DNA of 63,878 nt, counting the filler, from Phoronis australis (lineage: Eukaryota > Animalia > Phoronida): the NCBI GenBank assembly GCA_002633005.1. It is 5 parts of 5 records of this genome, joined end to end, with 100 filler letters (N's around TTAATTAATTAA, not from the genome) between each part and the next. Parts side by side here need not be neighbours in the genome. Positions count along the whole stretch, not along the records: positions 1 to 27,110 come from NMRA01001321.1; 4 more parts are not named here. One strand, given 5' to 3'. How positions within the stretch are numbered: position 1 is the first letter of the stretch; each line of letters begins with the position of its first letter. The notes under the pieces are model-generated. The model was given only the letters and a program-made list of their open reading frames with translations, was not told where the DNA came from and searched no databases. Below are positions 320 through 1,860 of the stretch, piece after piece. The translations under genes and the position numbers were made by a program.

Positions 320-915
320 GATGAAGCGAGTAAAAGGAAGACCCCAGCGCTGAAAGGCATCCTGCACACAGCCAACGACTGAAGAGTGTGGGCAGACCTT
401 GCCGGTCATCAGTCATTCTTCCCTCATCACCTTGTCCAGACGCCCCAGCGCCCTGACTTGGTTACTTACTCGGACAGTTCCCACCAGGTCATCCTGATTG
501 AGCTCACTATCCCGTGGGAGAGTAGGGTGGAAGAGGCACACGAGCGAAAGAACTTGAAGTATGCAGACCTGAGGAATGACTGTCATGCTAACGGCTGGAG
601 ATGTTGGAGTTTTTCTGTGGAGGTCGGCTGCCGGGGTTTTCCGGCCAGTTCGGTCATCACCATGGCGAGATCTCTTGGCGTCTCCGTGTCAGGAAAGAAG
701 GCTCTTCTACGCGATGTAACCACTGAAGCTGAACAGGCATCTTGTTGGATTTAGATGAAATGCCAACAACAACAACACCAACAACCGTCAGACAGAGCCT
801 GATCAACTATGTTGTCCCGCCTACTAGAGATGGTCTTGGTTTAGGGACGAAACCATTAAGGACTGTAGGAGACCAACTGAAGATGGCGGTTGAGCACAGT
901 TCCATCAAGTGTTTA
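320..915 (+). mobile_element. 3' fragment of an RLE-type non-LTR retrotransposon (HERO/R2-superclade-like): restriction-like endonuclease domain plus 3' UTR, decayed
   Basis: Translation GILHTAND*RVWADL...RPDLV...ILIELTIPWE...AHERKNLKY...VEVGCRGF...EQASCWI* carries the PD-(D/E)xK RLE motifs. Two stops (380-382, 752-754) fall at Trp-like positions. Boundaries approximate. Confidence 0.85.
803..893 (+). ncRNA. Putative non-circularly permuted hammerhead ribozyme
   Basis: Core CUGAAGA 877-883, GAAA 849-852, GUC 833-835. Stems: I 836-842/870-876, II 814-818/844-848, III 830-834/852-856, extra 820-824/865-869, closing 803-813/885-893. Confidence 0.7.
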
Positions 916-1860
916 AAGTAAGCACTAGTGAAGAGAGAAACAGTGTCATCAATGTCCCCGGTGTCCAGTATGGAATCCCAATCAGAGGAGATAATATCCT
1001 GACGTAGTTTATCGGTGTCGACTTGATCATGTTTCCATATGGCTCGTGTGGTGTCTTGGTCTTTAACCAGTTTGTTAAGTGTTAAAGCGGTTTCAACTTT
1101 GTGGTGATTAGAATTGCCAACAGGAAGTAATACAGAACATGATTCAATGACATTCAAATTGTTTGTTATGCAGAGATCAATACATGATTGAGAAATGTCG
1201 GTAATGCGCGTTGGCTCATTAATTAGCTTATGCAGTCTTCAGAAAGTAAGATATCAAACAATTGTAGTCCCGCCGCATTGTCATGATCGTCATGAAACCA
1301 GGTGGAGTTTCTGGAATTAGAATCCTCATATGATTATACCAACCCTATTGTGATTAAATTGCGCAAAGTAATGGGATAGATCTTTGAAGAAGTGTTTTCT
1401 TTCAGTTGGTGACTGATAAGGTGATCGATAAAACAACCCATAGAGATTTTTTCTGGGACCGAAATAAACTTAGTTAGTCCAGCATTTGCATATCTGAGAT
1501 CAAGTTTAACTGGCACATAAGTAAAATGTGAGAGTGTTTTTAGTGGACAGGATGATGCCACGACCACTGTTACTGTGATAGGCTATACTGTAACCATTAT
1601 CAAAATCGTCTTCGGTAACATAAGTTTCACAAAGGGCGACAAACATATAATTGTTGGACAGGGCAAAGTTCTTTAACGGTTGGAATGTGGAGAATTTGTT
1701 TGATTTGATGCTAGTATGCTTGAAAACAGAATTAAAAGTAATATTGCCGTCAGGCCCAGGATTTTCTTCAACATCGCCTTCACTAAGAGAGGGCACATGG
1801 CAATAACGACTCCGTAATCCACACAGGTGTTATGTGAACAATAGTCAGGCACGTCAGTAA
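915..1860 (-). mobile_element. Decayed APE-type LINE (CR1/L2-like) ORF2 N-terminus: endonuclease domain
   Basis: Fragments FVALCETY, PTRITD-like and IDLCITN segments, LPVGNSNHHKV (SDH-like) and DWDSILDTGDIDDTVSLF, broken by frameshifts and stops. The element probably continues beyond the MITE to about 2630. Confidence 0.75.
1752..1778 (-). other. 2A-like ribosomal stop-go peptide (GDVEENPGP)
   Basis: Exact D(V/I)ExNPGP consensus immediately N-terminal to the APE domain. Confidence 0.8.

Follow-up and report, generated by a model that had tools for sequence, protein, structure and literature searches.

A rewired hammerhead RNA conserved in the 3' UTRs of HERO-like RLE retrotransposons

Downstream of the decayed coding region of an RLE-type non-LTR retrotransposon in the genome of the phoronid Phoronis australis, an RNA motif is found whose strands are wired in an unusual order; the motif is real and conserved across the 3' UTRs of HERO-like RLE retrotransposons, and its fold is almost certainly that of a hammerhead. 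As judged from its sequence, the RNA very probably cleaves itself after C835. Positions given below count along the window, that is, the whole stretch of DNA that was analysed (63,878 nucleotides, filler included).

In the initial annotation the window copy had been read as a hammerhead with the strand order II-P-III-C17-I-II'-GAAA-III'-P'-I'-CUGANGA, and this order is borne out by the sequence: the core letters lie where they had been placed (CUGAAGA at 877-883, GAAA at 849-852, the pairs G814-C848 and U834-A852, and a GUC triplet ending at C835), stem I (836-842/870-876) comprises 7 bp with one GU, stem II (814-818/844-848) 5 bp, and helix P (820-824/865-869) likewise 5 bp. Stem III had been located correctly and counted one pair short, since 829-834/852-857 form 6 bp, with G829-U857 in addition to the 5 bp claimed. 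With the two helices Pc and H described below, the full order reads Pc5'-H-II5'-P5'-III5'-U-H17-I5'-II3'-GAAA-III3'-P3'-I3'-CUGANGA-Pc3' (Table 1). A descriptor of the rewired strand order has a single match in the window, and one match in all of 300 shuffled windows. The segment 795-900 has an ordinary folding energy (z -1.22), as expected from a doubly pseudoknotted core; minimum-energy folding, which cannot display such a core, does not by itself favour stems I, III or P.

Table 1. Positions of the hammerhead RNA and of its host element in the window.
Feature	Positions	Strand	Evidence
RLE C-terminal coding region of a decayed HERO-like non-LTR retrotransposon	383..754	+	65% amino acid identity to the C-terminus of P0007
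Whole ribozyme-like fold	782..892	+	descriptor matches and covariation in relatives
Helix Pc, 5' strand, pairs with 884-892	782..790	+	9 bp; 8/8 pairs with two-sided changes
Hairpin H (791-797/807-813), adjoins Pc and G10.1 without spacer	791..813	+	6/6 pairs with two-sided changes
Stem II, 5' strand; G814 = G10.1; pairs with 844-848	814..818	+	sequence, relatives, covariation
Helix P, 5' strand, pairs with 864/865-869; joins distal ends of stems I and II	820..825	+	sequence, covariation
Putative k-turn, non-bulged strand; G827, A828	826..828	+	28/34 lineages
Stem III, 5' strand; U16.1 = U834, C17 = C835; predicted cut 835/836	829..835	+	sequence, relatives
Stem I, 5' strand, pairs with 870-876	836..842	+	sequence, relatives, covariation
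Block G: stem II 3' strand, G12 A13 A14 A15.1 (849-852), stem III 3' strand	844..857	+	sequence, relatives
Putative k-turn, bulged strand: 3-nt bulge 858-860, G861, A862	858..863	+	28/34 lineages
Helix P 3' strand, then stem I 3' strand	864..876	+	sequence, same-species copies
Catalytic core C3-A9 = CUGAAGA	877..883	+	sequence, relatives
Helix Pc, 3' strand, immediately after A9	884..892	+	relatives, covariation, fold probabilities
3' tail of the element	893..922	+	divergence of contigs and reads past 922

The case for the motif is carried by its relatives. A search of metagenome contigs with the RLE alignment returned 345 relatives, the best 80 of which were analysed. Among these 80 loci the strict descriptor fits 41, the misses comprising 29 loci with at least 250 nt of flank and 10 with less; in the controls it fits none of 80 reverse strands, none of 80 coding stretches and none of 1600 shuffles. 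A relaxed fit gave 67 fits, the window included; six were removed (the spurious L018, L041 and L059, the true but misregistered L044 and L070, and L062, in which a deletion spans the site), and the remaining 61, drawn from the best 80 of 345 and the window, fall into 34 lineages when clustered at 80% stem identity. With L044, L062, L070, L071 and L076 added back as decayed or misregistered carriers, the motif occurs in the 3' UTR of 65 of the 73 informative loci among the best 80 of 345, seven being too short and eight being without it. In a MAFFT alignment of the 34 lineages, made from sequence only over the fitted regions, 85.5% of the cells of the six-helix structure are paired, versus 59.8% in shuffles, which ignore kinship, and 33-45% with slid partners, which keep it; the covariation score is 0.632 versus 0.206 in shuffles, 33 of the 36 pairs show changes on both sides, and mean stem identity between lineages is 46%. 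The covariation that the initial annotation had proposed to look for in homologous 3' UTRs is thus present in all six helices of the 34 lineages, Pc and H having taken the place of its closing helix. That the 3' UTR of an RLE retrotransposon holds a hammerhead of non-circularly permuted order thereby gains strong comparative support from descriptor, core and covariation.

The distribution of the motif was followed beyond these loci. The wiring is absent from all of 120 viral loci chosen solely for sequence motifs, no RLE relative was found in viral contigs, and prokaryote genomes yielded only two short contigs with an RLE relative, lacking a 3' flank and probably representing contamination. 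Rfam returned nothing relevant in the window at 600-1200 and no match in 12 motif-bearing loci at the gathering threshold, in agreement with the expectation of the initial annotation that standard hammerhead searches would miss such an RNA. As to the eight loci without the motif (L016, L018, L020, L029, L034, L041, L042 and L059), a quick tree groups seven of them in a single subclade together with the divergent L010, the carrier of a hammerhead with an extended P and no k-turn; in the same tree the window sits on a long branch, its placement being unsure. Rfam has no match in the eight motif-less loci, and a twister- or HDV-like substitute, sought in them by eye, was not supported. By comparison with L015, also by eye, L062 has lost its cleavage site, 11 nt having been deleted between a pair of short direct repeats.

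At the step between A9 and G10.1 a closing helix 803-813/885-893 had been proposed by the initial annotation and had to be abandoned: it is pairable in the window copy, but in the relatives 36.7% of its cells are paired versus 37.9% in shuffles, which is the level of chance, and its pairing probability in a fold of 781-893 is 0.00. It is replaced by helix Pc, whose pairing probabilities in the same fold are 0.94-0.99, together with hairpin H; across the 34 lineages every pair scored in Pc (8/8) and in H (6/6) changes on both sides. The fold therefore begins at 782 and not at 803, so that the range 790-910 named in the initial annotation omits one strand of Pc. The junction lacks any unpaired base in 30 of the 34 lineages, an arrangement that the relaxed fit was built to seek, and the sequences suggest a four-way junction, built by Pc and H, at the A9/G10.1 step. 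The copies of the same species are instructive at these sites: in DNA run X2 other copies have C at 809 (summed depth 6128/6266) and A at 864 (7530/7530), the letters of the window copy thus representing private changes; C809 pairs in H and A864 pairs in P; the common variants G792, A886 and U887 preserve the pairing of H and Pc; one diverged copy, with several non-compensated changes including G at 835, looks dead. The loop of H (window 798-806) carries a palindrome-like motif, UGAUCA in 15 of the 34 lineages and UGGCCA in 5, which could permit loop-loop dimers or the binding of a protein.

Helix P, in which 6/6 pairs show changes on both sides in the 34 lineages, probably serves as the contact between stems I and II, by analogy with the helix called 'I' in type SGC. 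It is linked to stem III by a putative k-turn at 826-828/858-862, which had been overlooked in the earlier reading. A k-turn consists of a canonical helix, a 3-nt bulge and tandem G-A / A-G pairs, and at the level of sequence the joint between P and III has this composition: the pattern (G-A before stem III; a 3-nt bulge, then G-A, after it) is found in 48 of the 61 fits and in 28 of the 34 lineages, and in none of the 34 when bulges of 1, 2, 4 or 5 nt are sought instead.

Since the window copy holds the 3' part of the element only, the full-length architecture was read from the relatives P0007 and P0008, both of which show the characters of the RLE type, namely a single ORF with an RT, a CCHC knuckle and a C-terminal PD-(D/E)xK endonuclease. 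P0007 has 1233 aa with RVT_1 and zf-RVT domains; P0008, a Danio relative, likewise has RVT_1 and zf-RVT, and the best solved-structure relatives of both are R2 proteins. The identity of the product of 383-751 to the C-terminus of P0007 extends over 123 aa; in-frame stops stand at 380-382 and 752-754 in the window copy, other copies differing at 382 and 753, and Pfam gave nothing significant for the four ORF pieces of the window. The RLE alignment conserves D25, E40, K56 and Y60, which we take to be the motif residues of the endonuclease. In another relative, P0009, the RT is preceded by a Ulp1 (Peptidase_C48) domain. The label HERO for the clade of the element is provisional and leans in part on the Danio relative P0008. 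RLE elements fall into five clades, of which the HERO clade is largely non-specific in its insertion (PMC4640811).

Past 922, contigs (15 and 18) and reads (11 and 14) of the same species continue into unlike sequence, and the end of the element is therefore placed at 922. DNA copies thus end 87 nt past the predicted cut site and keep the whole ribozyme, with which the proposal of the initial annotation that the ribozyme could define the 3' end of the RNA does not readily agree. The consensus of the flank after 922 begins with TTC in 5/5 runs, which may reflect either a target preference or microhomology with the start of the element. A second multi-copy repeat occupies window 924-1316 on the minus strand, the HERO-like copy adjoining it in the opposite orientation; its open frame, for which Pfam and the PDB gave no match, has a motif reminiscent of the tail of the endonuclease in APE-type LINEs. 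Farther on, a satellite-like array at 1885-2102 and 2330-2421, with periods of 40-93, appears by eye to have an inverted counterpart nearby and resembles the terminal repeats of a foldback element.

Non-circularly permuted hammerheads are indeed on record, as the initial annotation had noted. In the scheme of Eckert, Friedrich, Weinberg and Weinberg (Eckert 2023; PMC10085705), hammerheads are built from blocks S, G and C, which combine into six types, block C being assumed unbroken beyond 1-2 nt. The HERO RNA fits none of the six published types, though it would work like type-SGC. The block orders of types I, II and III (CGS, GSC and SCG) are not found, S being followed by G and then by CUGANGA; the cyclic order S-G-C of types SGC, CSG and GCS is found, and a contiguous block C is not. 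With these last three types the HERO RNA shares the core, the pseudoknotted arrangement, the short linker from the 5' strand of stem I to the 3' strand of stem II, and a helix that connects stems I and II at their distal ends; unlike them, it has its break within block C, at the step from A9 to G10.1, with two additional helices capping the gap, and a putative k-turn lies between P and III. The settings differ as well, the HERO RNA residing in animal retrotransposon DNA and the examples of Eckert 2023 coming from metatranscriptomes, metagenomes and one bacterium. A plain type SGC was considered and rejected, because the strand after A9 pairs with Pc and forms 0 bp with the 3' strand of stem II in 39 of 41 loci, as in the window, and 1-2 bp in the other two. 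A term search of the supplement text of Eckert 2023 returned neither 'HERO' nor 'Danio' nor 'block C'.

With the classical types I-III the RNA has in common the core C3-A9 and G12-A14, the pairs G10.1-C11.1 and A15.1-U16.1, the NUH triplet and the U3-A8 alternative (Perreault 2011; PMC3088659); unlike them, no circular permutation of a three-way junction yields it, and Rfam does not match it. At the A9/G10.1 step the hammerhead of the viroid CChMVd tolerates one extra nucleotide, A10 (PMC3705267), and in solved hammerheads A9 pairs with G12 beside G10.1-C11.1 (PMC11300833, PK hammerhead); in the literature searched, no precedent for a break of block C was found beyond this documented one-nucleotide insertion. 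Among retroelements, Penelope-like elements and retrozymes also carry hammerheads and occur in tandem (PMC11167929, PMC4918200, PMC7229834, PMC4209133), and retrozymes are reported to spread through circular RNA; their hammerheads are canonical or minimal and lie in the terminal repeats of GIY-YIG or non-autonomous elements, whereas the HERO RNA belongs to an autonomous RLE LINE and follows the ORF. The ribozymes of R2 (HDV-like) and Perere-3 (a twister variant) are self-cleaving RNAs of non-LTR retrotransposons too, of a different class and at the 5' end, unlike the HERO motif in the 3' UTR (PMC13725137, PMC13580325, PMC8501958).

Several features of the relatives bear on catalysis. In the 61 fits U4, G5, A6, A9, A13 and A14 are invariant (61/61), and C3 (58), G8 (59) and G12 (59) nearly so, this conservation being partly built in by the relaxed fit, which tolerated two core mismatches; the 10.1/11.1 pair is G-C or G-U, and the 16.1/15.1 pair U-A, in 31 of the 34 lineages each. 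Position 17, unconstrained in both descriptors, is C in 27 fits, U in 18, A in 16 and G in none; by lineage it is G in 0/34, whereas position 1.1 is G in 10/34, the former having p ~6e-5 at 25% G if lineages are independent, which they are not fully. L027 and L053, of one lineage, have U3 with A8 in place of C3-G8, and L073 has U3-G8; U3-A8 is a natural covariation of active hammerheads (PMC3088659). A genomic junction in L070, described below, coincides with the predicted cut site and is a further possible sign of cleavage. RNA ends at 835/836, as anticipated by the initial annotation, were sought in RNA-seq of the species (runs X5 and X6) and did not appear, there being neither a step in depth nor a pile of ends. 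This null result is weak, because the reads are few (63 and 50, from the ~18-19% of each run that was scanned, the runs having only the species label in common with the window), lie on both strands and stem from mixed copies, and because public RNA-seq likewise shows no such ends for a Penelope hammerhead (PMC11167929). Behind 922 the RNA reads are heterogeneous, and no dominant joint of tail to start is seen among them.

A mechanism consistent with these observations may be proposed. Pc would stack on H, and the resulting four-way junction would hold A9 against G10.1/G12, while P would tie stem I to stem II and the k-turn would bend P back onto III; a standard hammerhead core assembled in this manner would cleave after C835. 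After the cut the two pieces would remain paired via II, III, P and Pc (~25 bp), and for this reason re-ligation should be favoured. Transcripts that read through or span a tandem would be divided by the cut into RNAs of unit length; with two cuts, a tandem would free one unit, whose ends would rebuild the ribozyme and could close into a circle. With priming at the tail by the protein of the element, reverse transcription could continue beyond the 5' end and enter the tail a second time, which would yield head-to-tail copies, the source for the next round. That a conserved RNA with a hammerhead core cuts itself and that unit-length RNAs re-close into circles for reverse transcription has, on the sequences, about an even chance of being right, and the use of circular RNA as template for copying the element is similarly balanced; more tentative is the fuller view that autonomous HERO LINEs replicate via circular RNA which their own ribozyme in the 3' UTR would produce, its core being assembled across a break in the backbone, with tandems as both product and source and a k-turn-binding protein that could gate the cut. 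Circular RNAs were already raised in the initial annotation; excision of circles is preferred here because it best explains selection on cutting.

Tandems are indeed common: among the 52 fits with at least 200 nt after A9, 14 precede the 5' part of another element, head to tail, 13 being called by protein similarity and one by the leader motif. A head-to-tail next element with a leader of short repeated units is seen in L005, L007, L008, L012, L015, L019, L021, L022, L025, L026, L027, L040, L049 and L072; a 5' truncation of the upstream unit is plain to see in L021, L026, L027, L040 and L072. The distance to the next ORF is ~800 nt in L073. The kinship of tandem partners, which could be followed in 9 of the 14 tandems, gives rho 0.30 (p 0.09). 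One tandem is of mixed families, L019 followed by L009 with coding DNA 69% identical, and is therefore not obtainable from a monomer circle; by eye, the start of an element also seems to follow the motif-less L016 and L020, of one family, so that tandems may form without the motif. From these two observations it follows that jumps, or insertion at the ends of elements, occur too. Among the loose ends listed, DNA copies that begin at 836 do not accumulate, and since copies are continuous across the cut the template must have been uncut, re-ligated or precisely bridged.

The foremost alternative, which we regard as rather unlikely, runs as follows: the RNA would cleave itself without forming a circle, ending read-through or restricting the mRNA, insertion would proceed from uncut, re-ligated or two-piece, protein-held linear RNA, and tandems would arise when the reverse transcriptase jumps between RNA ends or when elements insert at each other's ends. 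Besides the mixed-family tandem and those seen by eye in a motif-less family, this is favoured by RNA reads that cross 835/836, by the Penelope element, for which uncut RNA is the main insertion substrate in vitro (PMC11167929), and by a junction in L070, where at bases about 2-53 the 5' half of its own family's ribozyme ends at C17 and is followed by internal RT codons of a 5'-truncated copy. This junction, one event among ~30 visible 5' junctions, has the look of a jump to an RNA that ends at C17 and is a possible footprint of a jump or ligation onto a cut RNA; microhomology of 0-5 nt may lie in it, and a chimera of the assembly could also have produced it. What linear RNA leaves unexplained is why cutting 87 nt inside the end of the template should be selected in most lineages, and why four helices of the wiring hold the two products together.

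Distinctly less probable is a role like that of the 5' ribozymes which serve R2 and Perere-3, the cut in the upstream copy of a tandem making the 5' end of the downstream linear RNA and possibly aiding its translation. The predicted cut does lie ~100-150 nt upstream of the leader motif of the next element in 13 tandems; however, insertions beginning at nucleotide 1.1 would then be expected, and there are none among the loose ends listed, nor was a lone 3' half of the ribozyme found in the best 80 of 345 loci and the window, with flanks of up to 1500 nt upstream. Scarcely better placed, and if anything a shade behind, is a catalytically silent scaffold by which a protein, either that of the retrotransposon or one that binds k-turns, would pick the template for priming, as with the structured 3' UTRs of R2; the position in the 3' UTR, the k-turn and the conserved loop motif of H would suit such a role, as would the missing RNA ends at 835/836 and the failure of minimum-energy folding to favour stems I, III and P alone, but the near-invariant core, the exclusion of G at position 17 and the U3-A8 covariation are requirements of catalysis. 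Finally, a chance arrangement in a decayed repeat, to which the ordinary folding energy of 795-900 and the lack of an Rfam match might point, is refuted by the covariation of the stems across 34 lineages, and the descriptor counts, the core conservation and the frequency of the k-turn are all contrary to it, leaving it next to no probability.

The hammerhead variant is apparently undescribed, and its genomic setting is new; the largely open-access literature searched makes no mention of hammerheads in HERO elements. Its wiring is new to the published scheme of six types and breaks the assumption made there for block C; going by the literature searched, no non-circular hammerhead would have been known before from animal genomes, and no hammerhead of any kind from the 3' UTR of an RLE LINE. 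RLE elements are under development as tools to insert genes, and the circularisation of RNA could benefit from a ribozyme with products that remain paired. The motif is present in most sampled members of a widespread group of retrotransposons while being invisible to Rfam, and it opens to test how RLE elements that are not site-specific define their template and whether a LINE copies itself from an RNA circle.
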